Shown here: in pieces, positions 7,201-59,100 of the stretch
Layout of the letters: each line of letters starts with the position of its first letter
How positions within the stretch are numbered: position 1 is the first letter of the stretch
Assembly (NCBI GenBank): GCA_973895155.1
Contig: OZ316895.1
Span: 19,668,803 to 19,732,802, forward strand
DNA from: Marsupella aquatica
Lineage: Eukaryota > Plantae > Marchantiophyta
DNA: 64,000 nt
Direction: 5' to 3'
The notes under the pieces: model-generated
The model's input: the letters and a program-made list of their open reading frames with translations, nothing else
Database searches by the model: none
What the model was told of the DNA's origin: nothing
Position numbers and translations under genes: made by a program

Positions 7201-8340
7201 AACCTAAAGTTTGTCGTCTATTTGCACCGCGGCCAATATATCACCAGACATTTTTAGCTGCAGGAAAAATTCTCGAAGTTCTCAAAGGAAATTCTCAAAG
7301 TCTTAACGCACACTGCTCTACAATTTCAATACCGTCACCAGTACTTGGCAGGCGCTTAACGCACCCTATTCCGAGTTCTAGACTCAGTTGAATACCGTGG
7401 ACTTCTGTAACCAGTGGTTTGGAATTGAGCGTCAATGACAGCGACTTTTTTTTTATGGAGGGTTCGGTAACTGGTCGCGACCTCCCAACGAAGCCATCAA
7501 TGCAGGGTGATGAACGATCATTGCATGCGTTCGCTTTATCGTAGATATGTTAATTAATGCGATCAGAAACACTGCGTCCTTACGAACGGTACATGACCTG
7601 CTGTACGTCACTGATCAATGCAACGAGCGACATGCCGATAAAAGATAGTATGTTAAGCACTTGGTACCAGCTGCTTGATACAGGACGAAGTCAATCGGAG
7701 TCAACTCTACCAAGAAAATTGTTTTGACTGATATCTGCTGAGACCCTGGATGATAGGGTGAGAACTTCAATAAGAGCTTTAACTTCCACGTTCCGAGCTG
7801 ACCTCGTCTTCGCAACAATGTCTATTACGCATGCAGTACGGGGGGCTGCAATACCGACAGCGGATCGAAAGTGGGTGAGACGGAGCGCTCTACGAGCAGA
7901 TATATTTCAATTGAGGAACAACAAACTGAAGTGGACGTGCAAATGATACTCAGTTACGCAACCTTAGTCACGTCAAGTAAACAAATTCAATATTCTTTTT
8001 CTGAAGGTGGTTAATGTTCATGCAAGATTTTGTACGTTGTCCACAAACATTAAGGTCAAATGGTCGAAATCAACAAAAAATGAGTAGGTTTTTGTCACAT
8101 CATCTATAGTGATTCGTTTCGACACGGCGGTTCTGGCAAAAAAGTCCTCCACAGACTGTATCATCCCTCCTTCCGGGTGACTCAATATAAATCTACAGCA
8201 AAATGTTTCACAATCACACTTTACCTCACTGCACGGGTGGCGTTTACCCCCAGCAGCGCGCACAATACACAGTCCATAGCTCTTTTATCCTCATGTCAAG
8301 AACGCTCATCAGATTGTCTCCAGCTAAGTTCAGTGTCATC

Positions 8341-8649
8341 ATGGCAATGTGGCGCGTTGCTTGTGTGCTTTTGTTGATAGCAATAGTGACCGAAGCAGCA
8401 AGGATTGAGACTTTCAACAATGCCAACTGCAACGACTCTCCTACCAACACCTTCTTGGTGGGCGGCAACTCTTGTCAGATCTTCTAGGATCAGGGCGCCG
8501 TTTTCATCAGTGAGGTTAACTCGGACACTCGTGTGTCGATTCACAACCAGCAAAATTGTGAACAGTACAGCAGTGTTGCACAGATATACGGAGGAGGTTG
8601 TGTTGTGCAAGGCAGAACCAAACTTCGCGCTGTCTGGATTCAGGGTTGA
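8341..8649 (+). pseudogene. Paralog of the 3787-4095 secreted peptide gene with a premature stop
   Basis: Same length (309 bp) and colinear (MAMWRVACVLLLIAIVTEAARIETFNNANCN...RAVWIQG-TGA). The GAG Glu codon is replaced by TAG at 8485-8487. Confidence 0.85.
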
Positions 8650-8676
8650 GAAATGCGTATGCTCAGAGTTAATAGC

Positions 8677-28039: not shown

Positions 28040-28129
28040 CATAACTCATTTTCTAACTCAATACTTGGGTGGTACTCAGGTTCTGCCAACTGCATCATTT
28101 GGCAAAACAAATGAATGCTTACTAATTTT

Positions 28130-29259: not shown

Positions 29260-32200
29260 ATAACCATTGTACATAAGCCGTTTTTTTTTGTTTTTAGTTA
29301 ATTCCGTTGCTATGCCCCGGAGGCCTATACTTATGTTTTTGGATGCCTACGACTCCCCAGCAAGCAAGGATGTTGGGACCTTGAAACTAGGGTCGGTCTA
29401 ATCGGACGCCCCGTTTCCCTTAGGCCCTTAGTTCCTTTTTGTGTTGATGAGACCCCAATAAGGTTTGGGAGGAGGAGCGCTAATTTTCACTAAACCCCGG
29501 AAGAGGGAGACGCCATCAGAGGAGCGTTAAGGGAAGGCTTCAGGGGGAAGTTAAATCCCCCAATACGAGCTGTTGGGGCGAGGTTGCAGCCGGTGCGCTC
29601 GGGAATTTAGGGGGGGTTAAAAATTCCCCAGAGGAGACCCCGCGAGTGAACGGAAGGGGGAGGAGGCAAGCCAGTGGCTGGCGGCCGCGAGCCCTGCATA
29701 GGACCGCGAGCCCACCAGCTGTAACCGAGAAGGAGGAGCCAGGTACGTGGGGGTTTTTTTTATTCCCCAAAAGGGGCGCTACGGAGGGGCATTGCGCTAC
29801 GGAGAGCCGGGGCGAGCCGAGGCGCAGCCGGGCCACAGCCAGCGTAAGGAGGAAGCGGTCGTGGGGTGGGGGGGTATTAAGCCCTCCCGTGAGCGAGGCG
29901 CCGGGGTAGCGGAGCGCTTAGGCAGCCGGGGAGAAAAAAAAAGAGGAATCAGGGGTCCAGCGAGCTGAAGGCAGCAAGTAGGATGGGAGCCGGGCCCATG
30001 AGGGGCGAGTAATGGTGAGGAGGGGGGTATTAAACCCTCCTGCGAGCAGGGAGCAGGACCAGGCGCGCCCTGCATAGGGCCGCACGCACTTAATGGCACC
30101 GCGAGTCGGAGGAGGTACGGGGCGCACATTAAACCCTCCTGGAGACGGGCCGAAGTGAGTTGGAAGGGGGAGGAAGGCGCTGCCGTAGGGTGCTGCCGGG
30201 CAGCGGGGCGCCCTGCATAGGGCTGCGTGAAGGTGGGGGGGAAATTAAATTCCCCCGGCCTCGGAGGGACGGGGCACATGAAGCCGAGCGGGGACGGAGC
30301 GTGAGGGGGGCCGCGTGTCAGCATACGCAAGCCGTTCATAGGGCCGCGAGCCGGGGCGCAAGGTGAAAGGGGTTTTCCTTCCCTTTCCCCTACATTAGCC
30401 ATTTTTTCCCTCCTTCCCTACTTTCTACGCGCGCGAATTCCCTCTTTGCCGAAAGCAATTTCTCTCTTTGCTGAAAGCAATTTCTCTCATTGCCCAAAGC
30501 TCTCTCCAACTCTTGCAATTATTTTTGAAGCTCTCTCATGGTTGATTATGGGAGCTTGGTGACTCATTTTTTTGGACATTAGAGACAACGGCATTGAGTG
30601 ACTTTGGGGGAAATTAAGGGTGGTTCTTAATTGCGATACAGGGGCCGTTTGGGCCAGGATTTGAATGTGGTGACGGGATTTTGTGATTGGGAATTGTTCC
30701 TGGGCATGGATGCTTGATCAGCCTGAGTTCAGCGCGGCTCGCATTCGTAGATACAAAGCCGCTTACCGTGAGTACATTGCGACACTAATTGAGGAGAAGA
30801 GAGGAGATAGCAGAGCGGCAATGAGCACTGGACCGGCAGCAAGTCCAGCACCGGTTATGAGGAAGGTTTTCCGTCGAATTTATCCCAAGACCTCTGCCAA
30901 GGTGATGGAGGATTGCAAAGCTATGTTCCAGGCCACCAGGCTCACCGACTTCATGAGAGTAGAGATTAGAATCCCTCCAGGGAAGAGTTGGGACTTGGAG
31001 GCTGGAATGGAATTGCGCACAGAGGGGATTTATTTCGCATATATTCAGCGTTTGGTACCTCATGCCGAATTGGCTAAGCTGTTGTTTTTGGAGAACCAAC
31101 AGTTCTCATTCACCCCCCAGAACATTATCTGGGATCTCACGTTGACAATGGTGGCATGTTGGGTGAACAATCCTACCTCCACCACGGCCATTCACCTCTC
31201 GGCCATCAAGGATGCAGCGCACAAGGGATTTCTGGCCAAGGTTCATCAACGGGTCCTTGGTAATGTGCAATCCGGAGTAGTGAACGGGGAACATTTCATA
31301 ATCGCTCTGGATATTCAGAAATATCCAGCGCATGCTTACGGATGGTGGTATTACGGATTGACAAGGCTATTGGCTGCTGAACCCAAGAGTCTGAAACCAG
31401 GGGGAGCTTTGCATTTGATGGGATCATTTTTGTTGGCCAGGGCAAAAGGATTGATTACCTCCCCGGGGCCCGAAGAAGCTGGGTCATCCCTTACCACGGA
31501 AATCCGCAACATTGCCACTACCATCTTGGGGAAACTCACGGAGGTGTCAACAGTGTCAGCAGGAATAGGAGACAGTCATGTGGTGGAAGACATCCAGGAT
31601 GAGGAGTACACATTGGAGTGGCTGGAATCTCTGGTGGGGAACCCAGAGGAGCCCCTTGCCTATGACATACTAGAGGTCTACTTAGCGGAATTACGAGATT
31701 TTTGTGAAGGGGCCCATGAGGGGCTCAAGCTAGCCCACACATTGGAAGATGCGCTCAAACAGGCCAACGCAAGGGTGGAAACATTGCAGCAGGGTGCCAC
31801 ATCGATGAAGGAGGTGATAAAAGCTAAGGAGGAGGCCATACAAGAGAAGGCCAAGCTTCTCCAAGCGGCTCAAGTGGAGATTTCTCACTTGAGAGGGGCC
31901 TTGTCTACTAAGGCCAAAGAAGCGGAGGAAGTTGGAGTGTTGAGAGAAGCATTGGCCAAAGAGAAGCGAAGCACGGGAGAAGTGGAGAGGTTAAGAGGCC
32001 AGATTGCAGAACTACGGAGTCAGGTGGGGATCTTTGAGACTAGGGCCAAAAGGAGTGAGGCCTTGAGTCTAGGGAAGCGGAAAAGTCCCTGCCCACGTAC
32101 CTAGCTCCAGGCTTTCCCCTGACCTGGTCTCCAAGGCCATTGAGATGGTGGTGAAGGAAGTAACTAAGTGAAAAGTACGGTCCCTTGTTGGAAGCTGCCA

Positions 32201-33438
32201 AGAAGAATCAGGAGAAGAGTAAAAGCTTGGAGAAGAAGCTCAAGGAGGTACGTAAGTTGTTACAGGAGGCCCAGGGCAATACGGGAACCCCGGGGATGCC
32301 GCCCAGATTTGTGACACCAGGGACTCCCATGGCCACCGGACAGGTTTTACCGTTGGAGTTGCAATCTGGAGAGGAGGCTGCCTTGTGGAAGGATACCATC
32401 GGTGAGGGCTATGTCAAGGCTTGGCAAGCCTTGGCGGCATTGAGGAAGCAAGGGAGCACTAGCGGGAGGAGTACATCTATGAAGAAGAAGAGAAGCGGAG
32501 TAGTCTCCACTCCGATTGAGAGCGACGAAGAGACCAACTCACGGGGCTCAAGCCATGGCACTGTGAGTGAGGGGGAGGAGGACTAGGGTAGCCGTACGGA
32601 CTTGTCGTATGACCTCTGGATTTTGAAACTTTTTGGAAGGGTGCACTCACGGGCTTGTTGGAAGGAGCTTGCGGAGCTGATTCCAACAAGAGGCAGCGCT
32701 CCTCAAACAGAGCCAGGATGAGTAAGTTAGAGCCCGACAAAGTTGGTGAGTAAGTGATATTGAAACGACCATAACTTGGTCGTTTGGCGTCCGTTTCGAG
32801 AGCGGTTTTGTGATTCATGATCAGGAGGAGTAGGGCTACCCAGGGGTGAGCTCAGAGGTGCAATCAGAGTGGCAGCTTGTTTCGGCAATTGTGAGGTCCC
32901 TTGCATTTTTCATGGTTCACGGAGTAAGGTTGGGGCGCCGTCGAATGCACTGTTGGTCCCATTATTAGATTAGGGTTTTAGGAGCATGTGTGTGCTGCAT
33001 GCTTTAGGATTAGGGATTTCTTTCGTGAAGGTTTTAGCGGTGCCGCTAGGGTAGCCGCCATCCTTGTGATCCCGTGAGGGGTGCTTTGGTGTGTTGTTTT
33101 GAGTATTTAAGGGGAGAGCCCCGTAGTAGTGAGGGGGGGAACTCAGTCTAGTGTTTGCTTAAGGAAGTTAGCTCATAGCCAGAAGAGGGAATCAAGCCAG
33201 AGTAGTGAGGTAGAGGTGTAGCACTTGCCCCAGTGAGGCAATAGTTGGGCAGACGGCAGGAGGCCGGGTTGTTCTTGCAATGTGTTACGACGTTTTGCCA
33301 AAAGATATGGATTTGGTTTGATTCCTCAAGTTTTGGTGTGGCTATCTTTTCTGGTTCACGATTGTGTTCTTTCCCCAAGAAGTGTCTAAGGAATACTTGC
33401 ACGGATTGGTCGACCATGTGAGTAGGGGGGTGGTGACA
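29260..33438 (+). mobile_element. Probable Ty3/Gypsy-like element 3' region: GC-rich repeat leader, extra ORF and putative LTR (~32603-33438)
   Basis: GC-rich recurring motifs (GGGGGGTATTAA(A/G)CCCTCC, CCCTGCATAGG), a long intron-poor ORF, and a purine tract followed by a segment TGTC...GGTGACA containing GAGTATTTAAGG. No pol is visible and the boundaries are uncertain. Confidence 0.45.
30683..32586 (+). pseudogene. TE-associated ORF of unknown function with C-terminal coiled coil, disrupted near 32100-32185
   Basis: A 473-aa ORF plus a 133-aa continuation. The heptad-rich E/K/A/L segment runs across the break. A candidate splice acceptor TGCGATACAG lies at ~30641. Confidence 0.55.
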
Positions 33439-33789
33439 GCACTCCTCCAGCGACCAGTAGGAGTGTGTGTGTGGCGTAGTCCATGGGACTTGATCAAAAG
33501 TAGCGGGACTAGTCGGTAGACTTGATCAAAAACTACATTTCCGAGAGGGGAATAAACATACTCATCCTACTTACAATAGAATCCTAATAGCGTCCCTCCA
33601 CGTTCCCATCATACGATAACAAACGATTTTAGTAGGAGTAAATATGTATTTGTTGTGTAAATCGTTTGATAAGCAGGTGACAGGAGGGCTTTGTGCCTTA
33701 TGTGCGTTCAACATCATTGTAGTGGATTTCTTCTAGAAGGACATCTGCCATTCTCTAGTCACCTGCAAAAGCAAGGATCACAAGTGGGT

Positions 33790-33990
33790 CCCTAGGCCCT
33801 CAGTCCGGGTAAAATTAGTGAACCTCTATGATTGTGACCCTGTTGCTCTTGCCCCTTGTTATTTCTATTTTTCTATAAAAAGTTATTTTGTTACTAGTAA
33901 TATTAGTAATTATTAGTTCAAAATGAATAAAAACCAATCTTCAAGCATTTGCACTTACTCTGCATATTATCTAAGACTGAGGGCCCAAGA
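33790..33990. mobile_element. ~200-bp MITE, older copy of the CCCTGGGCCCTCA family
   Basis: CCCTAGGCCCTCAGT...ACTGAGGGCCCAAGA, with an interior homologous to the 42728 and 45713 copies. Degenerate 8-bp TSD AAGTGGGT/AGATGGGT. Confidence 0.75.
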
Positions 33991-34739
33991 AGATGGGTAA
34001 GTGCTATTTTTTGTTTTTTTGTTTGTTGCTTTACTTGGGTCCCTGAATTAGTTGCAAGATTAGTTGGAGAGGAGCCAGGTCCAGCTCCCCACATAGTAAC
34101 TGGCGAGCTTGCTGCTTTCCGTGTATTTTTGGCATTTTGAGTCTCCATGGGTTCAACTTTTGCACCCAATTAAGCTCCTCTATTTATGCTCCCTTCCTTG
34201 ATAGGTTCAGTCATAGTGGGAGGTCCTTGAATATCAGCAGAATTGATCCCCAAATGTTCTCCCTTCTTGTTTGTGTTGGTCTCTGCTTGATTGAACTGGT
34301 TAATTCTGATGTTCTCCACGTGCAATTGGTCAATTGCTCAAACAAGAGTGGATGTCTCCAATCCATCTTCATCAAGGATCAAGTTTGCAAGGGATAGAGA
34401 GACCGTTGTCTTTTGTACAGGTTTGGTTATCATATGCATGGCCAAATCAGTGCTACCTTGGTCTCATGTCTTTCTAGAGCAATGGTCATTTCGTCCGTCT
34501 CCTGTCCACAAATTACAATAGAAGTTCAATCCAAGCCGATGATTCCATGACTCTAGCCAAGATCAAGCCAAACCAATAATTCTAGACAATGATCAATGGA
34601 ATATGTATTTATTGTTGTAAAAGTCATATCAAAGACGTTGTCGTAAGGAAATTAGAATATATGAAGAATAACTTGGTTTTGTATGAAAATATAAAAGTGG
34701 AGATTTTCAATAAGATTTATATGGTAACAAGTAGATTTT

Positions 34740-39890: not shown

Positions 39891-41658
39891 ACGACGACAA
39901 TATGCTGTTAAGTAAAATATGTGGTTGCTCAAAAGATGTCATTAAGTAAAATATGTCATTCCGCAAAAGATGAAGTTTACTAAAAGATATCATTAGGCAA
40001 AAGACATAAATGCATAATAGATGAAATTGTGCTAAAGATGTAGTTGAAAAAATTCATGGTATAAAAGATATCTTTGTTAGAAATATCTTATTGCGGAAAA
40101 ATTATTGTCAAGTGAAAGATGCCATGACACGAAAGAGAGAGACAACCACCACCAAAGTACAACAAAATGAGAATGACTTTTTAGTTGTTTTTATTTTTAA
40201 TTTTTTTAAATCATAATAACCCCCCCTTCTTTTTCTTTCTTTTTCACTATTTTTCTTGTCTTGTCTTTGTCTCATTGATTAGATTGTGCACTAGTTTATT
40301 GATTATGTAATATTTGTCATTAAACTCCTCCCATAATGCCATGATGCTTGGAGACCCGGTTTGACCTTGCCCGTCAAACTGGCCAAAAATCATCGGCAAA
40401 TCGGCAACTCGGCACCCGGGTTTGGGAGTAGTCCGGGCCATGACAAGTTTGGTAGATGTTCGGGCCGGGTTTGGGCGAGGTTTGGGGAAATTTGGGCGAG
40501 GTTTGGGGGCCGGGAGTTTAGGGGAGTTTGGGCAAGGGGGAGTTCAGGGTTCGAGGGGGTTTGGGGTTTGGAAGGCGGTCCGGGTTTGGCGAAGCTGGTT
40601 CGGTGAAGCCGATCTGAGGGGGAGGTGGTCCACGGGGTTTGGGTGGGAATTCGGGTCCGGGTCCGGGGAGGAGGCGCTCCATGGGGGGTTTGGGGGAGGT
40701 GATCCAGGTGGGGGAGGACCGGGGGAGACGGTTTGGGTTTGGGGGATCGGATCCGGATTTGGGTTCTGACGGGGGTTTGGGTCTGAGGGGGAGGCGCTCT
40801 GACGGGGATTCGGGGGAGGTGGTCCGGGTGGGCTGGTGGGGGAAGGCGGTTTGGGTTTGGGTTTGGTTTCGGGTTTGGTTGAGACGGTCCGGGTTTGGGG
40901 GTTTGGTGGAGGTGGTCCGAGGGGGCTTGGGATCCAGGTCCGAGGCTTGGAGGATTAGGGTTTGCGGTACGGCGGTCGCGGGTGGCTGGGAAAGGACCAA
41001 GAGGGTGCCCGGGGTCCGAAAGGGGATAAAAGGAGAAGTTTTGTTTATGTTTTATTTTATTGTGAATAACCCTAGTGCCAAATGGAAGGATATAAAAGAA
41101 TACTTATACGCGCACTTTTTGAGCCTCGGTTTGGTTTGCGATACTTTGTACAAAAATTTCTTAATGTCATCTTAACAATTTAGTATCTTTTGTTCATTAA
41201 GTAAAATATTTGCGGAGATAGAGGAATCCATGTGCACATGATGCTTAGAGTTTTGGCTCGGTCTGTGATACTTTGCATGAATACCATGATTTGCCGAGAG
41301 TGTTTTCACTTGATATACAAATGAGTGCTAAATTATAGACACCATATCACATAAATCAAAGTAGGAATATAACAACTATGAAAGAAAAGAATACTTTTGT
41401 GCGCATATTTTGAGCGTCCACTCGGTCTGTGATATTTCACAAATATTGTCTATCTCTTTTATTGTTGTTACATTCAAAGGTAATAAAAATCATGTGTACA
41501 ATAAAAATACAAAATGCATGGGAGAAACACCGGGAAGAAAGAATAACAATACAACTTGTGATTTTTAGGGTGATTGTAGAAGCCTTATTGGAAGGTTTCT
41601 TTTAAATCCTGGTAAGATTTTGTTCCTCCCTCACATATCCCTTTGGTGAAGGGAAAAC

Positions 41659-43484
41659 ATGCCCACCCATAATTTTAGTGTAGAATATAGACAAGTGTTG
41701 GAGACGATCACAAAACATATGAACAAGGGATATGATGTGAATCTTGTTGCTCTGGACGCACTAAAGAACGCTCAAAACACTCAAGAGCATGCTAGGAATT
41801 CTAGCAAAATGGTTGGGAAACAAAAATGGAAGGGGGCGAATGAAGAGGCTAAATAGGTTTGACACAATATGGTAGTGGTGATATGGAAAGAGATACTATA
41901 TTGCTACACTCAACCAAAACAATATGGGGTGGACGGGTTCAAGAGGGAGTTCACGAGACAAGGACAAAAATGATACAAGAACTTTCTTGGTAAGATAACC
42001 CGTTGTATGCGGGAAAACATACAGGAGGACAATTTCACACGAGAGCAAATGAAGTCATTTTAAGATGAAATTGACAAACCGGAAGATTCCTGGAAAATTT
42101 GGCACTCAACTTGGAGAAGCATGTTTGGGATAATTTGGCAGCCAAAGTGGTGGAGGATGACAATACATTGCTTGGAAACTCCGGGATGTACATTGTACAC
42201 AAGAGAAATTGCTAGTAAAGTGAAGTAAAGAGTTGGCAATGGTAAAATCTGATAGCAATGTGAAATATGCAAACGAGATTGTGCAGTTCAATGGGGATGT
42301 CAACATCAAAAATGCTCGAAGAGAAACAATCATGTCCATTGCGTGTAGTTCCAGAGGTATGTCAGGAGTATCCATTTTCTTAAGCCTGAGCAGGTGCAGA
42401 ACACACATCGCATCGGGAAAGGTATCCAAGGAGAGGTATATACTTGTCGTATATTAGATTGTCCTCTCATTCCGGTGAACGTGACCTTAGTCACAAAAAT
42501 ATTCAAGGATGGAGACAAGCATAAGAGACAAACGAACGCATTACAAGAAGTGCTTATGGGAGGATTGAATCATAAGGGAATTGTTGGAGCTCTTGCGTTG
42601 ACTATTGAGGATCCGCAAAAACTTGTTTACGATCACTACAATGGAGGTGATTTGGGTAGCTTTATAGATAAGTGCGGCATATGGTCAAAGTGCAGGGGGA
42701 AGGCACAGACCACATCAAACCTTGATTCCCTGGGCCCTCACTCCGTGTAAAAGAAGTGGACCCCCCTACGATCGGACCATTTTCCTGTTTACCCCTTGTT
42801 ATTTCCATTTTACTATTAAATGTTCCCTTATTACCGGTAATAATTATAATTATTAGTTCAAAATGAATAAAAATTACCCTTCAAGCGTTCGCACGTCCTC
42901 CACGTATTAGTTAAGACTGAGGGCCCAGGGCCTTGATTTCAAGTTCATTTTTGAAAAGAAACTCTTGTTGGAGAACCATTTGGGAATTGCCTTGGTTTTG
43001 CTAGAGACACTGCAATACTTGCATGAGCATGATCAATTTTATTGTGGCTATTAAAGTGTATGTCGGATTATGTGATTTTGGCTTGTCAAAGCATAAATCA
43101 CAGTGCAAATTAACAGCAAATCGAATGTGGCCCACAACAAAAGAAAAAACAACAACATACTAGAAATAATATCCATAGTTGGCTCCGGAGCTTGTTCAAC
43201 CTATCCCTATAGAGTTTAGCGAAGCTACATATATATATGCTTTGGGAAATATTTTTGAGACATTGTTGATAGAGAATTGGGATGGAATGTCTAAGGGATC
43301 ACGGTTTTGGGGGAGGGATTGGAGTGCAACAGTGCATGGCCCCAAATTGAATGCCATCATTTATGACATGATGGCCACAGATGTGAAGAAAAGAATGGAT
43401 TGTGCTTTTTGGAGTTTGAAGATAGTTCGAACGTTTCCAGAATGCGCATTGCATTTGCACAACAGTCCTTATTTTAGAGATTAG
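41659..43484 (+). pseudogene. Decayed intronless protein kinase gene with ~250-aa N-terminal extension
   Basis: IGKGIQGEVY (Gly loop), VTKIF, QEV, LNHKGIV, LVYDHYNGGDL, LQYLHEH, GLCDFGLSK, APEL, IYALG. Interrupted by a MITE at 42728-42930. The catalytic loop is deleted or frameshifted and there are several stops. Confidence 0.85.
42728..42930. mobile_element. 203-bp MITE with 8-bp TSD inserted in the kinase pseudogene
   Basis: TIR CCCTGGGCCCTCA...TGAGGGCCCAGGG; TSD CCTTGATT at 42720-42727 and 42931-42938. Removing it restores the kinase frame (SNLDFKFIFEKK). Confidence 0.92.
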
Positions 43485-43669
43485 AGATTAGGGTTTAAAG
43501 AGTTTTATAATGGTCATATTAACGATTATATGTTCATTCATTGTATGTAAATTACAATGTTTTATAATTTGTTCATATTGTTCTACCAAAATTTATCGTG
43601 AATGCTCAAATTTGTGCTAAATGTGTTTCTACATTGCCAAATATCGTAGACTGTCTGTACATCTCGCAA

Positions 43670-45640
43670 ACATGGTATGATGGGAATTGGATTATGATGA
43701 GGAAGACAAGGAATTCACGACACAACATCCTATCCTGCAAGATGGTCAAGGATCCTATTGTGATGAAGATCTTCATAATAGTGTGTTGGATAACCACATA
43801 AACACTGGCAATGACTATGAGGCTAAACCCAAGGTTGGCACACCTTTGCAAAACACAAGAAGATTGGAGGATGAGGGTATCAATGATGAATGGAGTATAT
43901 CAATGCCAAATGTTAAACCTCCTCATGACAAATGGCCTATCAATACAAAGGAATTGGAGATGAACATTGATGCCCAAGAAAGAGTTTTGGCTATTAGCAC
44001 AAATGGTTTTTCACAATCCGGATCTTTGGGCAACAAGATCATGTGTGCAAGAAAAATTTACCATGTCCAAGGTAACACATGCAGGTGCTAAATTGCATTG
44101 GCAACAATGATATCGAGAGTTTTCTCCACACAAAGCCCAATCAAAAATGAGTTTCGTTTATCCTTCTTTTATCCAATGTCTGATTGCTGAATTTATTCTG
44201 AAATAAAAGGTGGATTACCGTTGGAAAAATAGTGTTGGCGAGCTGACTCATCAGGTGCATCCATCAGTGCTTGCAATTGTAACAAACGAGAATACAACTA
44301 TTGCAAAGGATCATTCAATCAATACTTGCAACAAGGGATCCAAAAGGAAGATAGATGAGACGGGGGAGGGATATACACATGAGAAGGTAAAAGTGGAGCT
44401 GTACTTCCTTGATTCTCTATGCTTGACCGTGCAACCACACCAACCAATGTGGATTCCACCAATACCAAAAAACCAATCCATTAAATAGGTGTTGGGAGTA
44501 GAACTCCACATGCAAATAACATCGATGTTGCTGATGCTAACAAGGATAAGTTTAACCTCCACAACATATGCTAGAGCTTGGGAGTAGATGTTGCTGAGGT
44601 GATTGAGAAAAATCTTTGCACGAAGTATATAGTGGAGCTCTATGAATGTAGCAGCATCAAAAAGTATAAGTCACAATTGCAACAAGCTAATTTGAAGATG
44701 AGATCACTTGAAAAGAAGCAAAACGAGTCAATGACCAATCCCAAAGTGATGTTGTACAAGTGTCAATTATTTGACAAGATGGAAGAAATCAATAAGCTGA
44801 CAATATGACTTACTGAAAAAGAACGTCAATACAATGAAGTGGCACGACTTGAGGAGAAGGACAACATCATTAATGATCTTAAGAGTCAACTTGCAATGCA
44901 AGCGGTCATCATAACAAATCTCCATGAAGAGATGGAGGAATTTAACAATCATGGGGATTTGGGTTTTGGATCAAACAAAGGGGAAGCAAAAATGTAGTCG
45001 ACAAATTTGTTAACATGCAAAGCATAGATCCTACGGGGCACAACTACCTTTTTCCAGATGTGGAGGTTGATGTGGAAGGTATTGAGAGGTATTTTGATAA
45101 GTGGAAAAAAGATGAAACTTTGGCAACATTTGTTTGTGAAAATGACGACAAGTGTACTTGGTGCCTATATCCTTGGGGCCCTGAATCTGTTTCCATGTTG
45201 GGAACCTCCGGTCATATATTGCATCATGCCTGCTTGTCTAAATGGTTGAAGAAAAGCCAAAATGTTGGTGTTGCACACCATTTCATGAGTTACACGAGTA
45301 TGAGCAACGAGGGTTGTTGAAGCAAATGTCAGCAATGGACACACAACAAAATACTGAAGAAATGGCTGAAGACAGTGTACCAGCAATGCAAATAGATGAA
45401 ACTCCCATTGAACAATTTATAATCAATGAATATAATTTGTCAGATGGAGAATTTGATAGGTTGTTATTCAGTGGTCGATTCAATGAGTGGAAGTAATATG
45501 CAGCGGCCAACCAGCCATCAATAGACAAGCAAAATTTGCAACGATCTTTTCGACGTCATCGACATCGTCAATTGTAGGCAGAGGTGAAGACAGAAGCCAT
45601 CGACATCAACAAAAAACAAAACTGAAACCAATAGTCTCTA
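43670..45640 (+). pseudogene. Decayed gene with acidic N-terminus, coiled coil and RING-H2-like finger
   Basis: Chained + strand ORF fragments (43687, 44210, 44578, 45015, 45242). Coiled coil at ~44600-44950. CTWC-x14-SGHILHHAC-LSKW...(frameshift)PKCWCC is a C3H2C3 RING-like motif with one Cys changed to Ser. Confidence 0.65.
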
Positions 45641-45712
45641 GATTTTGATGTAATTTTGATGCACTTACTATTAGAGACCTTTTGTTAAAATAGAAGCGGC
45701 ATATCCTCTTTG

Positions 45713-45914
45713 CCCTGGGCCCTCACTCCGTGTAAAAGAAGTGGACCCCCTACAATCGGGCCTTTTTCCTATTTACCCCTTGTTATTTCCATTTTACTAT
45801 TAAAAGTTCCCTTATTACCGGTATAATTATAATTTTTAGTTCAAAATAAAGAAAAAAAAACCCTTTGAGCGTTCGCACGTCCTCCACGTATTAGTTAAGA
45901 CTTAGGGCCCAGGG
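45713..45914. mobile_element. 202-bp MITE with 8-bp TSD (same family as 42728)
   Basis: TIR CCCTGGGCCCT...AGGGCCCAGGG; TSD CCTCTTTG at 45705-45712 and 45915-45922. Confidence 0.92.
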
Positions 45915-46347
45915 CCTCTTTGACAATTATTTTCAACCTCTAACATTTGGTAAAGAGATTTTGGAGTGGCATCATATTTCATATCCCATTGAGTACTTAC
46001 ATATATTTTTCATTGGGGGCAGGGCGTCGCCTTTTGGACAATGTGTATTTTCTTAAGAATACTCCATCATCCAAGAAGCCATAGGCTGTGCAAGCATATT
46101 GTCGGGCTCGCAATCATATTTTTGGGCACGCGAAATGTCACCGTAACAAAACTAGGATTCTAATGAATGATTGAACGAGTGGGAATGTTGTTGAGTACAG
46201 ATTTTTACAGGTATGTCAGCGCCTTAGGTTATTGACACCGGATGTGGGCATCATTGCAAAGTAAACTCACAGAAACAACATTTATTTCACTAAGATAAGG
46301 TTTGTGCAAGTAACAGAGCTTCAAGGCCAAATTTTCAGGTCCTCTTG

Positions 46348-48062
46348 TATAGTCCAGCAATTGGACAGTTCTTACAATTAGTGACAACTATGAGGAAAAT
46401 AGACGTGGTGAGAGTCAATAGCTGTTAAACACCAATTTTTCCCTACAATTAACGCAACATTACTTTTATCTACCCATTTGCTCTTGTATTAACCGATTAA
46501 TCGTCCAACAACAAGATAGTCTATTAAACCATTTTCATACTCTGAACTTGTAATTTCCGTTGAGTACTCTTCAATATCCACTTCCTCTTCCCACTTCTTG
46601 GGCACAATTGATTCAATTAATACTAATCCTTCCTTGTATACAATTTCTATAAATCCGCACCATTCCCGATAAGTAAAAATGCAAATGGGAATATTCTCCT
46701 CTCTCAATCATCGAGTAATTAGGTGTGAACCAATAGAACAGATCCATAGTTCAATTGGTCTGAGTCTAATTAAGGAGAGGTTCTTCATAGTTTTATCATT
46801 CAGACTCATGTTTCCGGGATTGTGATCTGGTTAGATCCAATTGTCTCATCGACTCATCCGCCAGGGTTGATCAATTTCTTGTGTGTCGGAGTAGATCTAG
46901 AAAAGCTAATCGTAAATAGAATATTAGCTCAACAACTACTCCGTTATGCTGGAGGTGTATTAACAATTAGATGGTTACTCTCATAACACACAAACTCCAG
47001 CCAGATTTTCCTGCTTACGAGTTGTCCATTAGCTCAAATCCGCAAGGTATTACACCTCAGCGTTCTCACTCTGAGCAAATTGACCCTCATTCATTCCTGC
47101 GGTTGAATGGTGACCATCTTAACATACTCCACTCTAATCCTCGGGTTGATTGTAATTTCCACAGACTTAACTCTCTTATGATTCAAGATTATCAGGTTGT
47201 TTCACTCAATTCTCTCTACTTCTCAGTTTCTGAACACATTGGTTCTCAGTTCTCTTTCTCTCTCATTCAGTCATAATCCCTCCTTGAAACTTCTGTAGCA
47301 ACAGTGCTCATTCAAGAACGATACTTCAGAGCATGCAATGATGATCTCTTTACTTCTCACATCAGAATTCTACTCACATCTGAGTAGGGAACACTTAACC
47401 AAAAACTACTGATCATCTTAAGAGAAGTCTGGCTTTGCCTCTCAATCAGATTACCTATTGAAAAAGTGACACCTTGCTCTATGCCATTGCCTGCCTTAAA
47501 TACTATCTTCCTACAAGATTATCGGTTTCCAACTGCCTGACTATCAAAATGGTTATTTAACTTACAAATCAAACACAACTGCATAGCAGTTAGTAAGCTA
47601 CTATTTTGCGGTTACTAAACTGCTATTCGTAGTTCCCGACCGGTATACTCTGTTAACTGAAACTACTGCATCAAACATCTCTGTAAACGATTGGTGGTTG
47701 GAGCCGTTTGTTTCTGAACTGCAAATGGTTTAGCTTGCAAATATGAGTGCCTCGATCTCTACTGAAAACATTCGATCGTCCTTCTCCCATTTGTGTTCGT
47801 TGTCTTGCTTTCACACCTAGAGCGCAATCTCTGTTGTCTCCTAACTTGGTATTGCATCCTTCATAGCAAAACCCTAATCCGGTACTACTCCATATAGCAA
47901 AAATTGTCGCGCTTTCTACTGTTAATCTCCCAGCCATCTTACTAAAGCTATTCCTACCTGCCACTGATCCCCTTAAATACTTGATCTATTATCTTCCGCT
48001 TGACGTTTCTCCGCTAATTCTATTTAACTATTTTCTCGGTTTACAGTAGCACAGTGGACTCA
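46348..48062 (-). mobile_element. Possible solo LTR nested in the hAT element
   Basis: Non-coding block bounded by AGTCCA...TGGACTCA with similar flanks (TGTAT/AGTAT). AGTATTTAAGG TATA-like motifs occur on the minus strand at ~47495 and ~47972. Ends are imperfect. Confidence 0.35.
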
Positions 48063-48584
48063 AGTATAGATCCTTCTCTAAAATCTTTTCCAAAAGGAGA
48101 TCGTGTAGCACAATGAGTTTGATAAAGCGATCCTCAGAATAGTTTCACTTGCCCAAGTTGAAAATGATTTTGTAGAAGGATGTATACCTAAGTCCATTGT
48201 GTTCCTGTTTTTCACCACGTATTTCCCTAATGCTTCCTCTACATAGTCAACATCTTGCGGGTCTCTAACCCTCATAGCTGTTACCAATTGTAAGAAAAGC
48301 CAAATTGTTGTACTCTATGAGAGCTTGTTGATGGCCGTGTTGTTCAACCTTGGGGCTCCGTTGCTTTCACAAATTTTCTCATAGTGAAATACTTAGTGAG
48401 ATGTTGTTTGCGACTTGAAATTTTGTGAATTCAGCTATCTGTTGCTTTTATGGTTTCAGCCGCTCCGAGTTCAACATCATGTTGTAGAGGACTTGCAAAC
48501 TCCTTTGCGAGACCATTGCAAGTGGCATCAAGCGATAGGACTTCATGACATCTGTGCCTTCACTAAAGCAACAATTGCAGTAGA

Positions 48585-49345
48585 TGATTGAAGCGGCTTC
48601 ACTGGATCAGAACCAGAAGCATGAGAATAAGCCATTTTCTAGGATCAATGATTTTCAAACATCGGCGATTTATAAGATGCTCTCTTTGAATCGAGATCTC
48701 TCAACTGGACTTGAGTCATCCCCATTGCAACAAAGTCATCTAAATGCGGTAAATGATCTTTTAATGAAGTCCAAAATCAATGAGAAGATGGTAGATGTCA
48801 ACCAATGTTTCCATAGCATTAGGCTCAAAGACACAGATTACTGAAAAATGCAATCCAAATTAGTGCTCTCCCTCAAAGTGCAATCCAAAAATACACAATC
48901 GACAAGATTTTGTGAGTTTTGAAACCTCCCAAGTGTTATTGATAGTTGGGACATGCCCTAGAGAATTTATGCTCACACTGTACAAATTTATACACTTGAA
49001 GGATTTCCAAACTCACAAAATTTGTCTGATTGCGTCGTTTTGGATTGTACTTCTAAAGTCGAGCACTAATTTGGTTTGCACATATCAGTAATTTATCTCT
49101 TGAGCGTACGCTAAGGTTGCATCATTGGTTGACATCTAATCTTCTTGCATTGGTCTTTGGCTTCATTAAGGGATCTTTTTGACACTTTAGAATGACTTTG
49201 TTCAATTGGGGAAGACTTCAATCGAGCTTAAAGTTATCGGTTCAGTGGGAGAAATTTTGAAAACCGTTCATGAAAATATCCGCTGACCTTGGGAAACCGC
49301 TTATTTTCATGATTATGGTTTGACAGTGTATTTACAATCACCCCC
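48585..49345. repeat. Long imperfect palindrome (foldback element) with ~350-bp arms
   Basis: Mirrored pairs include AGATGTCAACCAATG/CATTGGTTGACATCT, CCAAATTAGTGCTC/GAGCACTAATTTGG, ATTTTGTGAGTTT/AAACTCACAAAAT and ACAAAGTCAT/ATGACTTTGT. Centre at ~48940-48990. Confidence 0.85.
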
Positions 49346-50217
49346 AATCAGCATTGCAATGTACTTGGCGTACGATATGTTGGTGATGGAAGAATTATGG
49401 AGTGATTTGACATGTCACTTGAAAACAAAGATACATGTTTTGTTCTATTCATATTAGTGGGTGTAGTGGGATAGGCTAGGGGGTCACTGCGTTGCAACTT
49501 GAGATGTTTTCTCAATCAGGGGTTCAATTCCCCTTTGTCACATGTTACATAGATTGCTTGATAGAATGGATTATTCATGTTGTGACCTTAAAGGCCATCC
49601 CACATATGTACGCAAGGTTTATATTGGGATGACCTTTAAGGTACACAATATAAATGATGCATTGAAATGAGAGAAATTTTAGGTCATAGAGGAAGAACTG
49701 TTGTAGCGTGCGCCATGTGTGACAAACTACTTGACAAGGTACTTTCATAAATTTAACTTCTCTTTGTCGGGCAACTTTGTTTTCAATTTATGTGTGATTT
49801 TAGAGTATTAGAAGAAAGAAAGATGGAGGGAAATTTTGTTACGTACAAGGATGGCGATACGGCCATGAAAATGTTGTAGATGATTGGGGGGTCCTCCATA
49901 TAGTCAAACCCCCGATATGTGGACAAACACACTCTTTTGAATTACTATGGAAGCAATATACAAAATGTGGTGCCTAATGAGTGATTCATGATCCTCAATG
50001 ACCTTGGCTCCACATATGTGAAGGGTCTCCTTATCTTTATCACAGAGACAATACTCGGTTGTTCAGACTCACTTTGTGAGACCTTGTTGGCGGTGATGTG
50101 TCTTTCTCCATTCCTCAAATGTAAATAGAAATAAATATTCATACGTTGTATTATATTATTAATACAATAATAAAGGGTACAAAACATAGGAGGACCTAAT
50201 GAAAAGATGCCTCAAGG

Positions 50218-53149
50218 CTATGATGAGAAATTCCTAGCATTGTTGCGACGATTCTCTTGCAAAAGTTCATTCCTTTCGTCCTGTTTGTCCATCCATGTCA
50301 ATGGATCACGATTGTGCGATTGAACATTGTGCAACGTTTCTTGAAATAAGGTCGTTCTTTGGAATCCACCGAGGTCAATAGGCCTGTTTGATGTATATGG
50401 ATTCATCACAGTTGGCCCTGCATACGCATGCAAGGTATGTTGGGGCTGCATGTTGTTGGCACTGTGCATGTGGGTCATCCAAAGATCGACCATGTAGATC
50501 ACTGTCTTTGTGAAAAAGGTTGACCTCCTTCCCTCCATGGGATGCTCTGGTGTGCCTGTGCGTTGTTGAAGAAATTATGGTCTGTTTATGTCCACATCAT
50601 TGTGGACGTTCATTGATGGATAAGACCAAGGTGAGTTTGGTTGGGGAGGCATCGCAAAGTTTGTATCCAATGATGCATCTTTGTCATCTTGGATTTGAGA
50701 CTCATGAATTGTAGGATATATGTTCAAATCCATTTCATTCTCTCATTCACCAGCATCACTTATGTCTGTATCTAGTGAAATACGAGTCAAGAACTCACTA
50801 TCTTTGTCTACTGCAAATCCATGTAACAATTCATCAGTATCATCAATTGTATCATAATCTTTGACATCATCTTCACCAAGAGCCACACGTGTTGCATCAT
50901 ATTTGTCATTGCTGCATGACTCTATGGAAGTAGGCCTACTTCCATCATTTGTTGTTCTTCTTTGATCATAACGTTCATATATAAACGTATGCGGGTTTTG
51001 AACATTTGTGAGCCCTTTCTCTATCCTCATGTTTGTAAATACAAACACCAAATCTTTTGCTGGATCAATTGGTCAATCGATTGCAACTTTTGAAATGTAT
51101 AAATCCATACAAACTCCAGTTTTGTTCGCAAGCTGATGCATATACTTTTTGGTTCAAGATTCTCCTAGTGAGGATTCTGAGATCTTTATAATCAGCACCG
51201 TACACATGCCACCACTCTGTTGGACTGATATTACCTATACTTGATTGGGTTCCTCCTATTGCTACTGATGTCTTGGGCCTTTTTTTTGTGCATCAATGAC
51301 TTGATTGTAGATGGCAGAATTAAGTTCTCTCATATCGCGATCATGGTTGATCCCCTCCTTTACTAGTTATTCTGCATATCAGGCAATGTATATAGTGAAA
51401 CCTCTATACAGTTCAGGATCTCTTGAGACATCTACGTCCTCATCAAAAAATATTTGAGGATTGATATATGCCACGGCTAGCATAAAATCAGTAGTAAGAG
51501 ATTTTCTTCAATCCATGTACGCTTTTAGTATCCTTGGTTTCAAGAACTCTGTTACCAATGGACATTCTTTCATGCTTGCCTTCAGAAGGTCAATTCCTCT
51601 TTTCAAACTCCAATACAACCAACCTGATTGCGGCAAATCACCATCAAATTCATGCAACATCCTCACCAATGGAGTAAAAAATTTCACTGTAGCCTTCACT
51701 TCAACCCAAAATGTTTTTTTGTTGTATCCATACTTTAAGTTCGTCTGCCTTTCCCCTCGTCATGTGTCGAGTTGATTTTGGTCGCACTGGAAGTCTATCA
51801 CGATAAGACTCTCATTTATCCTCAATGACCGTTTGTTGCAGAGCTCCTCTTAGCTCCAATGCTCTTTGCACCATTAGAAAATTTGTCGCAAATCTTGTTG
51901 CATTTGGATTCAACAATTTTTTGTTCGAAGATTTTCTCTCGAATATTGCAGAAAGCTTTTGCGATGACGAAATGGCTTTTACTATCCACCTCAAGCGTTT
52001 AAAAATCTTTTGGAAAGGATTCTGTCCACTCTCATCTAGCACTACACGCTTATGACCACACATGTCTTCTAGAAACAAATTAAACACGTGGGTCCCAGCA
52101 CACCAGCTCCAAGTCACATATGGATATTTTTTCATCACTATCTCACAGCTTGCTACGTGATTTGCGGGAGCTCCATCAGTTACAATTTGAATAATGTGAT
52201 CTGCACCAATATCCTTGATGTATTTCAACCACATCTTGCCAAGATATTTTCCATCTTTCTTGTCCGCTTGCGCAGCATTCCAACTATCCAAGAAGAAATC
52301 ACCTTGAGAAGTCAACAACATGACATTCATCAAAGGTTCTCTTTTGACGTTTCCCAATCCATCTGAAGAACTTAGAGAATATCCATAATATTTTGCCTCC
52401 TTCAAGGATTTTGTCATGTCCTTCGTGAGATCGCCCTTACTGTCTTCCAATAATTTCAGTCATAAATTTTGCATAGTAGGAAGAGAATAACCATTCACAA
52501 ATTTTCCTTTTGAAGTCTCCATGACTGCTTCTTGAAAAAAAGGATTATTTGAAACATTGAACGGAATACCACTTGTGTAAAAAGCTTTCGCCCAAAGTTT
52601 ATCCAAATGTGTTCTATTTGGAATTTGATAGGAATCCATAATTGGGTTTGGAAGATTTGTTGGCCTATCTCCTTCTCTCGCATTTGTACCATGCTCCATT
52701 TCAACATAGTTTGACCCTCGTGTGGATGCATGCGAATATGAAGTGCCAACGCTTGACCTGCGGCCTCTCATATCCCGCAAGATATGAGCTCCATCCCTTT
52801 GTTTGTACTTTAAGGTCGGTGGAACCTTTATCACATTGTACATTATGTTGATGGCATCCAAGTCAACGACACCATACAATCGTAGGCAAGGGGGCACATC
52901 CCCTTTTTGAATGTTTCCCATCAAATGCGTCTTTGCTTGTGTTGCATGATGAGTAACATATGTTAAACAATACTTGCATCTTCGATAGATACGATTGACA
53001 TCATGACATGTTGAAGGCGCATCACATCGTTTGAAATATCTCCACACAGGAGACTATTTTGAAGGGTGTTCTTGCACACGACTTGGACCAGGCCCAAGAG
53101 TAGTGGAATGATATCTAGTTTGACTTGAATCCTCTTCGTTAGAAGACAT
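50218..53149 (-). pseudogene. hAT transposase pseudogene (BED zinc finger, DUF659, C-terminal dimerization domain)
   Basis: VWRYF..CKYC..THL (BED); AFYTSGIPFN, SSDG, PLMNVM, QIVTDGAPAN, WSWCAGTHVFNLFLED and TRFATNF (DUF659 core); WWHVYG..ASACEQNWS..RL..LVFVFTNMR (dimerization). Multiple frameshifts and stops. ATG at 53149 is preceded by a polypyrimidine-TAG acceptor. Confidence 0.93.
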
Positions 53150-54524
53150 TGTTCAAACTCTAAATGCTATAGAAAAAGAAAACAATTGCTTTTTAGATTT
53201 TGTGGTTGTAACAAATATAGTAGAATGGGTTACTTTGCTGAATTATCGCAGACTGAGCCTAAGCTCTAAGCATGCGCAGGAAAATTTTCCAAGCTCTTAT
53301 ATTTATCGACATCCCTACTTCAACCTATGTTATGTAATATCTATAAATTCACAACCGTTTATCTATCAAGTGAACATATGTACGAGGAATCATGAAATCC
53401 ATATGAAATATCATAGACCGAGCCAAAGCTCTAAGCATGTGCACATGCGTATCTCCTTACTCGCAAGTAGTTCACTTTGAAAAAAACAATGATGTGAAAT
53501 TGTTAAGGCGACATAGGGAAGTTCAAGTACAAATTATGGCAGGCCGAACCAAGCTCTAAGTATGCGCGTACAAGAGTTCCAATATATCCCTCCATTTTTT
53601 CTCCCTAATGCTAAATCACAAAGAGAAACAAAACATGAGACTTTGGATAATTAGTGAAATGGATTAGTGGAGGCTCTATTTATACTATCTTCCTACCCTC
53701 CCTCGAGTTCCTAAAGCCCTAATTTGTCGACCTAATGTTGCTTAATATACCCTAATCCCACCCCTAACCCAAATTCCCGCCGCCCTTTCCCCAACCACCT
53801 TCCCGAGCCCCGAACTCCGCCCATCTTCCCTGGGCCCGTCCGCCGACCCCCGAACCCTGCCCCCCTTCCCCCGACCACCTTCCCAAACCCCGAACCCCGC
53901 CCACCTTCCCCGGCCACTGACCCCCAAACCCCGCCCCCCTTCCCTCGGCCCCCGACCACCTTCCCGAGCCTTCCCCCGACCGCCGGACCCTTCTCGAACT
54001 CCCCCAGACCCCGGCTCGGGGTCCCAACTTGACGGTCTGGGGTCGGGGGCTTGCCGGCTCTGGGGGGCTCGGGGAAGGATGGCGGGGTTTGGGGGTCGAC
54101 GGCTGGGGGAAGGGGGGCGGGGTTCGGGGTCGGCGCCGGGGAGAAGGGGGACGCGGTTCGGGGCCGGGGGTCGTGGGGCGGCGGCCGGGGGAAGGTTACG
54201 GTGCTCGGGAAGGTGGCCGAGGGAAGGGGGGTTTGGGGGTCGGCGGCTGGGGGAAGGGGGGCGGGGTTTGGGGATCGGCAGCCGGGGGAAGTGGGGCAGC
54301 ATGTTTGGGTCCGAGGGAGTCCGAGAAGGGTCCGGCTGAATTTGGGAGAAGTCCACACAGGGTCCGGGGGAGCCCGAGTGAGTTCAGGAGAATAATGTGG
54401 AATATCCATCAAATTGGGCCTTTTTGGGCCGTCATTGTCGGTTTGATGTGCTCGACAAGCCCTCAAGTTGCCCATCAGGTTAAACCGGGCTTGGAGAAAC
54501 CTGCTCACACCAAACATAATTAGT

Positions 54525-55355
54525 TCGTGGACCCCTTGGCTAATAGAATGAGGGGGAAGAGTCGATCTGAGCCGTCTCCATTTCTTATCTCCGGAAATCT
54601 CGTCCGTTCATCATAATGGCCAATCTATGGCTCAAAAGAAAGATCTCAAATAGATCTATGGATGGGTTCTGTCCGTTTTGCAAATGGGTTCATATTTTTC
54701 AAATGAAAAATTAAACAAATCCAAGCCTTCCTAGCCATCGATTTTGTTGATTTTACGATCTTTGCCGTCCATTTTGTAATGCCTCTAGAAATTTTATTCA
54801 TCCATGTTAGAAGGCGATCTAGGGTGCAAAAAAAAGATCTCAATGAGATCTACGACTGGGTATTTTTTGTTTTGAGAATGAGTAAATATTTTCAGTATAA
54901 AATTCGATGAACTTTCAAGATTCCAGCCATTCCTCCTCCCCGATCTTGGGCTTCTATGTGCTCTTCCCAGCACTAATGGCCGTACAATACGAGAGGTCCT
55001 TACATACCGGGAGTTGCAGTTTAACAAGGAAGTTATCAAGTTAGTTATTAGTCATTATTTATTATATGAAAAATACTTTTTATAAATCTTTAAATTTAAG
55101 TTTTAAAATTGGAAATGTAACTAAAACGGTTACATAGTGACAATTTTAACCGTCTTGCTCTTTGCATTTTCAATATTGTTACTTTTCTTTTTACGGCATG
55201 GCGTCCCAAAATTTACACCCAAATTGACACAAACACGAATGAAAAGTATAAGTTTGATTCACAAAACCGACGAGTCTTGTTTGTTGCGGTTGTTGTTGAC
55301 GTGACACGTTGTGGTGCCAGGAATTTTGGAAGGGACCTCTAGTGGGGTCCGTAAT
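54525..55355. mobile_element. Non-autonomous DNA element with GGACCCC-type ends
   Basis: Ends GTGGACCCC... and ...GGGGTCCGTAAT. Its right part is homologous, inverted, to 58752-59100. Confidence 0.55.
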
Positions 55356-58376: not shown

Positions 58377-58751
58377 GTTAGTGCGTTCGAAGCTAATCCA
58401 TCCCATGATTTGAATGTGGACGTAAGTTCAATTCAGGTCTGAAATTTTATTCCCTGGTACAAATTCGATTGAGGTGACCCTTGCGTTCGAAGGACGTCAT
58501 GATCTCAACTGACTTGCCCTGATTGATTACTGTGCGGCACTCTATGGTCATTTGATCGTTCAGGAACTTTTCTTCGTTGTTGTGGACTTTGTCTCGGTAT
58601 ACTGTTGTACAGTGTGTTTTGTTCGTCATGGCTTTTCCTCCGCTTTGTTTGAATTTTGATGGTGCTTTTCAGAAAATTGATTCTTCTCGGTGACCTTTAT
58701 GCATCTTTAATAAGTCAAATAATGAGCTTGGTCCAATCATGATCTACATTT

Positions 58752-59100
58752 ATTACGGACCCCACTAGAGGTTCCTTCCAAAATTCCTGGCACCACAGCG
58801 TGCCACGTCAGCAATAACCGCAACAAACAAGAATGGTCATGTTTGTGCAACGAATAAACTCCTCTCCATCTTGTTTACGTCGCTTTTCGTGTAATTTTAT
58901 GGACGCCATGCCGTCAAAACATAATGTAAAAGTAATTAAAAGTAATTCATCCAAATCTATTGCTACAAAGGGCGAGATTAAAAACATTCACCCATATTCT
59001 CTTTACTTAAATTTATAAATGTTTTTTTTGTAAAAGTAAATAGTGATCAACTTAAACAGTAACCGTATTCCTGTGTAACTGCCGAAATAAAACCGTCAGA
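58752..59100. mobile_element. Second, inverted copy of the 54525-55355 element end
   Basis: ATTACGGACCCCACTAGAGGTTCCTTCCAAAATTCCTGGCACCAC...GGACGCCATGCCGT is the near reverse complement of 55190-55355. Confidence 0.75.

Follow-up and report, generated by a model that had tools for sequence, protein, structure and literature searches.

We analysed a 64,000-nucleotide stretch of the genome of the liverwort Marsupella aquatica (contig OZ316895.1 of assembly GCA_973895155.1, positions 19,668,803 to 19,732,802 of the forward strand), hereafter the window, whose own numbering is used throughout. Positions 40340-54503 hold a candidate two-armed hAT-type unit, in which a transposase arm on the minus strand faces an arm on the plus strand that carries a kinase gene and a RING-like gene. 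The three genes, kinase and gene 2 on the plus strand and transposase on the minus strand, are convergent and decayed; all of them are interrupted by stops and frameshifts, and the present copy is dead. About 2.05 kb of its 14.2 kb consists of nested insertions, namely two miniature inverted-repeat transposable elements (MITEs) and one solo long terminal repeat (LTR), and ~12.1 kb remains. The unit is probably a multi-copy transposon that encodes a hAT-type transposase and, in convergent arrangement, a conserved kinase and a RING-like protein of its own.

Three decayed genes in two arms

The transposase pseudogene lies at 50221-53149 on the minus strand, its 3' end being approximate, and comprises an N-terminal Cys/His region, a DUF659 domain, a hAT dimerisation domain and a long C-terminal tail. 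Its pieces match PF04937 (DUF659, E 8e-22) and PF05699 (Dimer_Tnp_hAT, E 2e-5), both above the Pfam cut-off, and no MULE domain was found in it with Pfam. Two intact proteins of ~800 amino acids share 62% and 57% identity with it; the closer of them, P0001, is an intact DUF659 and Dimer_Tnp_hAT transposase, and a longer relative carries the match on to 50308. Aligned to P0001, its two main segments contain 11 stops. The words SSDG, TDG, CxxH and CE[RQ]NWS, which we take to represent the D-D-E triad and CxxH motif of hAT transposases, are present in P0001 and P0002 and survive in partly decayed form in the window, and the intact relatives have a long acidic Ser/Thr-rich tail, as judged by eye. 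Judged by its sequence, the transposase itself is a hAT, and the full-length pseudogene rules out the Pack-hAT class. No solved structure matches it by sequence. A metagenome scan with the transposase alignment confirmed none of 589 pattern matches; its two peptide patterns would miss the window copy too.

The kinase pseudogene (41659-43484, plus strand) is intronless and encodes a helical N-terminal region followed by a protein-kinase domain; it is broken by stops, frameshifts and one of the MITEs. It is colinear with intact kinases of 545-565 amino acids. One of its relatives, the intact kinase of the metagenome locus L001, matches Pfam Pkinase (E 4e-22) and retains the Gly loop, the Lys, the helix-C Glu and the HxDLHxxN, DFG and APE motifs, and its catalytic loop reads HCDLHDSN, the catalytic-loop Lys being replaced by His. 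The structural model of this protein (predicted local distance difference test score, pLDDT, 82.9) matches LIMK1 and Roco4 in Foldseek (E 3e-13), and its predicted fold is that of a typical eukaryotic-type protein kinase. There is no close named host kinase, the best structural matches being only 16-22% identical, and a viral fold library returned generic kinases only. The helical N-terminal region (~200-240 amino acids) has no Pfam, Atlas or Foldseek match at E <=0.001 and its best VIA Z, 5.7, is within the background for helical models, although the absence of a fold match does not show a new fold. The initial annotation had pointed to an inward ATG in each arm, and both starts hold: 53149 aligns with residue 1 of P0001, and 41659 with the starts of the kinase-family proteins P0038 and P0069 and of the L001 kinase.

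Gene 2 (43660-45496, plus strand, start approximate) is a second cargo pseudogene of ~600 codons in pieces, with an acidic start, a middle that looks coiled-coil-like by eye and a RING-H2-like domain at 45153-45274. The latter matches Pfam zf-rbx1 (E 1e-4) and zf-RING_2 (E 2e-4), and seven of the eight C3H2C3 ligands are readable across a frameshift.

Proposed ends, GC-rich blocks and a duplicated leader

The proposed left terminus (40340-40367, plus strand, exact end not fixed) is a degenerate short terminal inverted repeat (TIR) with its core at 40355-40367, and the proposed right terminus (54477-54503, minus strand) starts with CAGG on the inward strand and has its core at 54489-54477. With two mismatches allowed, the terminal core CCCGGTTTnACCT occurs once on the plus strand (40355) and once on the minus strand (54489) in the 64 kb. 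The 13-bp cores of the two ends agree at 12 positions, while the outer 14-15 bp are degenerate. A shared degenerate terminal motif had been claimed, and what remains of it is this core, unique on each strand, without agreement in the outer bases or a target-site duplication (TSD).

Inward of each end lies a GC-rich block. The left block (40400-41020, plus strand) is G-rich and contains 14 GGGTTYGG words, all on the plus strand; it is likely a transposase-binding and promoter region. The right block (53700-54400) has an internal palindrome and four such words on each strand, which gives counts of 14 and 8 for the two blocks against 4 for the other 62 kb. The inner half of the right block mirrors the left block, as the initial annotation had it, but the right block is itself palindromic, so the description as mirror images applies in part.

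Each block is followed by a leader. The left leader (41080-41658, plus strand) consists of three hairpin-like sub-repeats and a conserved donor-like GGTAAG word near 41611, and matches the right leader over 41080-41497; the right leader (53150-53597, minus strand) is also made up of three sub-repeats, and it shows a strong acceptor with a pyrimidine tract 16 nt upstream of the ATG. The inverted homology between 41080-41443 and 53597-53234 amounts to 69% over 370 nt (E 9e-33), and when extended to 41497/53182 (~420 bp) it reaches a score of 353, the best of 200 shuffles reaching 71. The inverted homology of three sub-repeats described earlier was thereby recovered, with three per side and the quoted CATGTGCACATG copy at 41229. 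Its reading as long TIRs was not: the homology begins 740 bp (left) and 906 bp (right) inward of the proposed ends and runs directly up to each ATG, which argues for a duplicated internal leader behind short degenerate TIRs.

The sub-repeats can fold as a bulged hairpin, with 87.5% of cells paired in eight copies and 19-44% in slid controls; an Rfam search of 40000-55000 gave no match. A splice acceptor before each ATG, also proposed at the outset, is strong on the transposase side but weak on the kinase side, where the window has CATAT and L001 has CATAG. The GGTAAG word, ~45-50 nt upstream of the kinase ATG, is kept in the window and in L001, and an AG acceptor-like site stands upstream of gene 2 in the window, near 43647, and in the kinase locus L003; together, these two sites suggest a splice that would skip the kinase.

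Relatives, other copies and surroundings

A metagenome scan with a kinase pattern gave three loci, of which L001 and L003 are true kinases; L002, an unrelated bacterial locus, was dropped. Related loci were sought in four scans of a viral collection, none of which found anything, and in prokaryote genomes, where two bacterial matches were taken as chance. Among representative proteins, a search with the kinase P0004 gave 110 matches at E <=0.001, ten of them at 1e-30, the closest being unnamed and mostly fragments. More distant full-length kinases of 440-650 amino acids (P0030, P0039, P0042 and P0050-P0104), with HNDLHxxN or HNDLSPxN loops and DWG, form a wider unnamed kinase group. We also considered whether the family is linked to Crinkler-type kinases, and the literature search found nothing on this.

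The kinase family is under purifying selection. In five of the six pairwise comparisons between the window, L001 and L003, the ratio of nonsynonymous to synonymous substitution rates (dN/dS) is 0.11-0.28, values that are approximate because dS, at 1.4-2.3, is near saturation; the sixth comparison is saturated. Applied to the kinase, the selection test suggested for the cargo points to constraint. Moreover, the 550 nt upstream of the L001 kinase align with the left leader of the window up to the ATG (score 245.5, shuffle maximum 58), and the L001 leader also aligns with the leader of the window transposase up to the acceptor (177.5, shuffle maximum 71.5). As the leader is recognisable at such values of dS, it is conserved better than synonymous sites. 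At L003, the start of gene 2 has a match in the DNA downstream of the kinase (76 against a maximum of 64; none of 300 shuffles as high). On the minus strand of L001 (302-3296), a DUF6729 frame and a 657-amino-acid DDE-like frame lie downstream of the kinase, where the window has the RING gene; the motifs of the DDE frame are presumably Zisupton/KDZ-like.

Contigs of four public runs (X1, X2 and X4 among them, from two studies; one possibly the window's own source) were compared with the region, contig depth serving as a rough proxy and not as a copy number. Among the joints of family contigs listed (15 of 155 and 15 of 144), those on the left arm and middle have depths of 166, 184, 201 and 229 in X2, those on the right arm 214 and 243, and locus-identical contigs 19-22; in X4 the depths are 329-479 on the left and middle and 433 and 453 on the right, with 31-39 for locus-identical contigs. 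In both runs the family contigs thus stand at about ten times the single-locus depth on both arms. A 989-bp contig of X2, ~89% identical, joins the left leader to the kinase reading frame, and further joints fall within the left G-rich block (40382>40651) and at the right leader (53121>53192). Among the 24 loose ends listed per table none falls at 40340 or 54503, and two loose ends from the middle have no match within the window.

The family contigs lack the window stops at 44806 and 51510. Of the classed coding differences among those listed, 32 of 40 fall at first or second codon positions, as expected if the window copy alone decayed. Over 40120-54516, most changes from the window to the family contigs of X2 are A>G or T>C (467, against 221 of the reverse kind), as expected if the window copy lost methylated cytosines.

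The first nested MITE (42728-42930) has an 8-bp TSD and is absent from other family copies, which skip it through a joint at 42713>42931 in X2 and X4. The second (45713-45914) belongs to the same family, is 92% identical and has its own 8-bp TSD. This ~200-bp MITE, with CCCTGGGCCC ends, is found in three copies, at 33790-33987 and at the two positions just given, two of them with perfect 8-bp TSDs, which indicates that another hAT-type family was active after the death of the element. The solo-LTR-like insertion (46423-48045, 1.6 kb, TG...CA) has 5-bp flanks that agree at four of five positions and is skipped by family contigs of all four runs (46414>48046).

Foldbacks lie in the interior between 46283 and 49663: two arms (46283-46404 and 48261-48391) surround the LTR, and hairpins lie at 48043-48208, 48598-49330 and 49565-49663. 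The hairpin at 48598-49330, a foldback of 730 nt with z -18.6, has CACTG-like ends, lacks a clear TSD and stands close to the depth of a single locus. These structures were considered as selected RNA hairpins and rejected, as neither strand has an excess of G-U over A-C (17 against 15 in the longest); since they are also mutually dissimilar, we read them as foldback insertions.

Elsewhere in the window, a very high-copy MITE-like insertion (54522-55354) starts 17-19 bp outside the right end of the unit, and its right 190 bp recur inverted at 58745-58941. An intact intronless frame of 782 codons (11884-14232, minus strand) presumably encodes a plastid quinolinate synthase (SufE and NadA), as would be expected of a land plant. 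An inverted pair of genes for small secreted cysteine-containing proteins (3765-4100 and 8336-8671, 88%) is one that we take to be MiAMP1-like. A GC-rich element at 29484-34000 contains a coiled-coil-rich frame of 476 codons (30674-32104), a repeated GCCCTGCATAGG word upstream of it and the third MITE copy, and direct repeats 1933 bp apart at 25973-28040 (99% over 86 nt, TG start) mark a young small LTR element.

A probable single element, its rivals and its possible role

It is likely that the two arms form one mobile unit. This reading draws on the matched ends, the absence of internal ends, the common leader, the similar depth of the arms and the purifying selection seen in the kinase. Within the 14 kb, neither a further terminal core nor a further GC block turned up between the arms, and the confinement of the core to the two ends means that neither arm has its own partner end inside the window. 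Separate insertions, each with a partner end, had been named as the finding that would speak against a single element; no second end was found inside the window, the core being present only at 40355 and 54489.

Several observations weigh against this reading. The TSD expected at the ends of a hAT, 8 bp long or 5-7 bp in some lineages, was not found: the 8-mers flanking 40340 and 54503 agree at three of eight positions, and no 8-10-mer with at most one mismatch is present near the two ends, nor beyond the flanking insertion, in a copy that is ~10% diverged from its family and whose exact ends are not fixed by other copies. For this reason the 14-kb unit is classed as hAT-type and not as a proven single hAT insertion. 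The left end starts with CATG instead of CAG. The interval from 48196 to 49431 is spanned by none of the listed contigs, and in X1, X2 and X4 the depth over 48280-49239 is close to that of a single locus. At L001 the DUF6729 gene and the Zisupton-like DDE gene come after the kinase on the same strand, and neither gene 2 nor the hAT arm has a match there; the kinase was found beside a hAT transposase at neither of the two outside loci, L003 ending too early for the test. Both RING matches of gene 2 lie under the curated Pfam cut-offs, which leaves its proposed character as a coiled-coil/RING gene with a RING-H2-like stretch after a predicted coiled coil; the third expected zinc ligand is Ser in the window copy, and the coiled-coil piece has no homolog among 311 candidates (longer proteins only). 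Finally, covariation in the eight sub-repeats of the leader does not beat the shuffle control (47/500). As a whole, the multi-gene hAT with kinase and E3-like genes put forward by the initial annotation is supported in part, by gene content, layout, leader and selection, and is weakened by the missing TSD, the missing bridge across the middle and the context of L001.

The absent TSD, the foldback-rich middle of ~1.2 kb that no contig bridges and the lack of a hAT transposase at both outside kinase loci would also suit two separate related elements lying tail to tail, a kinase-bearing non-autonomous derivative and a transposase-bearing one, with a leader common by descent and truncated inner ends. 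We consider this improbable: it requires two independent truncations, the 14 kb holds neither an inner core nor an inner GC block, family contigs have similar depth on both arms in X2 and X4, and other family contigs run from the RING side over the LTR to 48046-48196. Still less probable, and in our view hardly credible, is a Pack-type capture in which the kinase and RING genes are inert host-gene passengers. Published work describes plant hATs and DUF659 hATs that have captured genes (PMC2528002, PMC8903248 and PMC6710886), and the window copy is decayed; against a capture, the intronless kinase has its full length and evolves under purifying selection, its N-terminal region has no Pfam, Atlas or fold match, no named host kinase is close, and in a distant relative the kinase stands behind the element's own leader.

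If the two arms are one element, its hAT-type transposase would, from what is known of the family, cut the short ends and bind the GC-rich repeats. Each GC block with its leader would drive a transcript inward, so that transposase and helpers would be switched on together. By analogy with the TIRs of MuDR, such inward transcription co-regulating transposase and helpers seems rather probable. The left transcript would yield the kinase and, when spliced from GGTAAG to the acceptor of gene 2, the RING protein; from the positions of these sites, the production of both proteins from one left transcript is a real possibility, somewhat short of probable. The kinase would then mark a silencing factor in the host nucleus for ubiquitylation by the RING protein. 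With the order of kinase and RING gene kept in at least two lineages, the two would most simply be a mark-and-degrade pair, and we propose tentatively, by analogy, that a host silencing factor may be what they target. On balance, we favour a dead copy of a ~12-kb multi-copy DUF659 hAT-type transposon whose kinase and RING protein may jointly have disabled such a factor.

After a host silencing factor, the next most likely target, though in itself a rather unlikely one, is the element's own transposase. A single element could use the kinase and RING protein to regulate it, phosphorylation activating and ubiquitylation removing the enzyme, which would limit transposition to a short window of time. 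The common leader before both genes would fit such coupled expression, as would the long acidic Ser/Thr-rich tail seen by eye in the intact transposases; on the other hand, the L001 kinase adjoins another type of transposase, which, if the linkage is real, suits a host target better, and we regard self-regulation as not very likely. The same locus invites the idea that leader and kinase are a portable module swapped between superfamilies, hAT here and Zisupton/KDZ-like in L001, as TET/JBP is among fungal transposons. At L001, an intact kinase behind the conserved leader stands ~340 bp upstream of the DUF6729 and DDE genes, and GC content, overall and at third codon positions (GC3), is similar across the three frames of the locus. 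Yet this evidence comes from one contig, the leader of L001 is homologous to that of the hAT transposase as well, which hints at a hAT-type origin, and a nested insertion at the position of gene 2 accounts equally well for what is found, so that a portable module appears unlikely. Equally doubtful is a broader conjecture, in which early-diverging land plants would harbour an autonomous hAT lineage with a structured RNA leader duplicated to both arms, whose own kinase and E3 ligase would serve it as a phospho-degron kit to counter host silencing; the leader-kinase cassette would move between superfamilies as well.

The preferred reading, a single hAT-type element with helper genes, can be set against known systems. 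hAT elements are textbook one-gene transposons, and known transposon helpers mostly act directly on DNA or chromatin. Arabidopsis VANDAL elements are reportedly Mutator-like elements with a DNA-binding anti-silencing helper, VANC, and neither kinase nor RING gene; they offer a model of a transposon helper acting against silencing, as a functional analogy only. A DUF659-type hAT of Pseudocercospora fijiensis is ~9.5 kb long, carries histone H3-like copies as cargo, captured from a host gene and mostly inactivated, and has 20-bp TIRs and 8-bp TSDs in 99 copies (PMC6710886). The present unit resembles it in its DUF659 transposase, large size, many copies and extra coding cargo, but differs in that a duplicated leader precedes its cargo, which consists of a transposon-linked kinase from a family under purifying selection and of a RING-like gene, and in that no TSD was found. 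By comparison, the term giant used for the unit at the outset is overstated, since without the nested insertions it measures ~12 kb against those 9.5 kb.

In rust fungi, hAT7 families carry TET/JBP upstream in the same orientation, and IS3EU families an alpha-kinase gene opposite in orientation to the transposase (PMC12730594). The window unit shares with them a second gene in a hAT and a kinase opposed to the transposase; unlike IS3EU, its kinase has a typical Pkinase fold (HxDLHxxN) and is accompanied by a hAT transposase and a RING-like gene, and an IS3EU element with an alpha-kinase is ruled out by the Pkinase fold and the hAT domains. In maize MuDR, mudrA and mudrB are convergent and their promoters lie in true TIRs of ~215 bp (PMC3440606). 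Both have two convergent transcription units with homologous sequence on each side, whereas in the window the common sequence is an internal leader, set back by 740-906 bp from ends that are short and degenerate, and the transposase belongs to the hAT type and not to Mutator. The MuDR-like layout of the initial annotation therefore survives in the convergent genes, without terminal long TIRs or a Mutator transposase. Grapevine hATs have 8-23-bp TIRs, 8-bp TSDs and lengths of 2-5.5 kb (PMC2528002), and Pack-hATs are non-autonomous with host gene fragments as cargo (PMC8903248). With plant hATs of Ac/Tam3 type, some families of which contain captured sequence, the unit has in common the transposase superfamily and its proposed short TIRs; unlike Pack elements it has conserved whole accessory genes, and grapevine hATs are smaller.

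Separate publications provide precedents for multi-gene hATs, for kinase-bearing transposons and for the convergent layout. The literature search found no hAT that carries both a protein kinase gene and a RING gene of its own; Repbase and supplements were outside its scope, and a Repbase description could exist. If our reading is correct, a selected kinase and a RING-like gene within a hAT lineage would mean that transposons make use of phosphorylation and ubiquitylation. It would also bring to light an unnamed kinase family, with intact members that can be assayed and an N-terminal region of no known fold. Furthermore, the leader common to the transposase and its helpers, which has outlasted synonymous sites, would offer a concrete test of whether these genes are switched on jointly.

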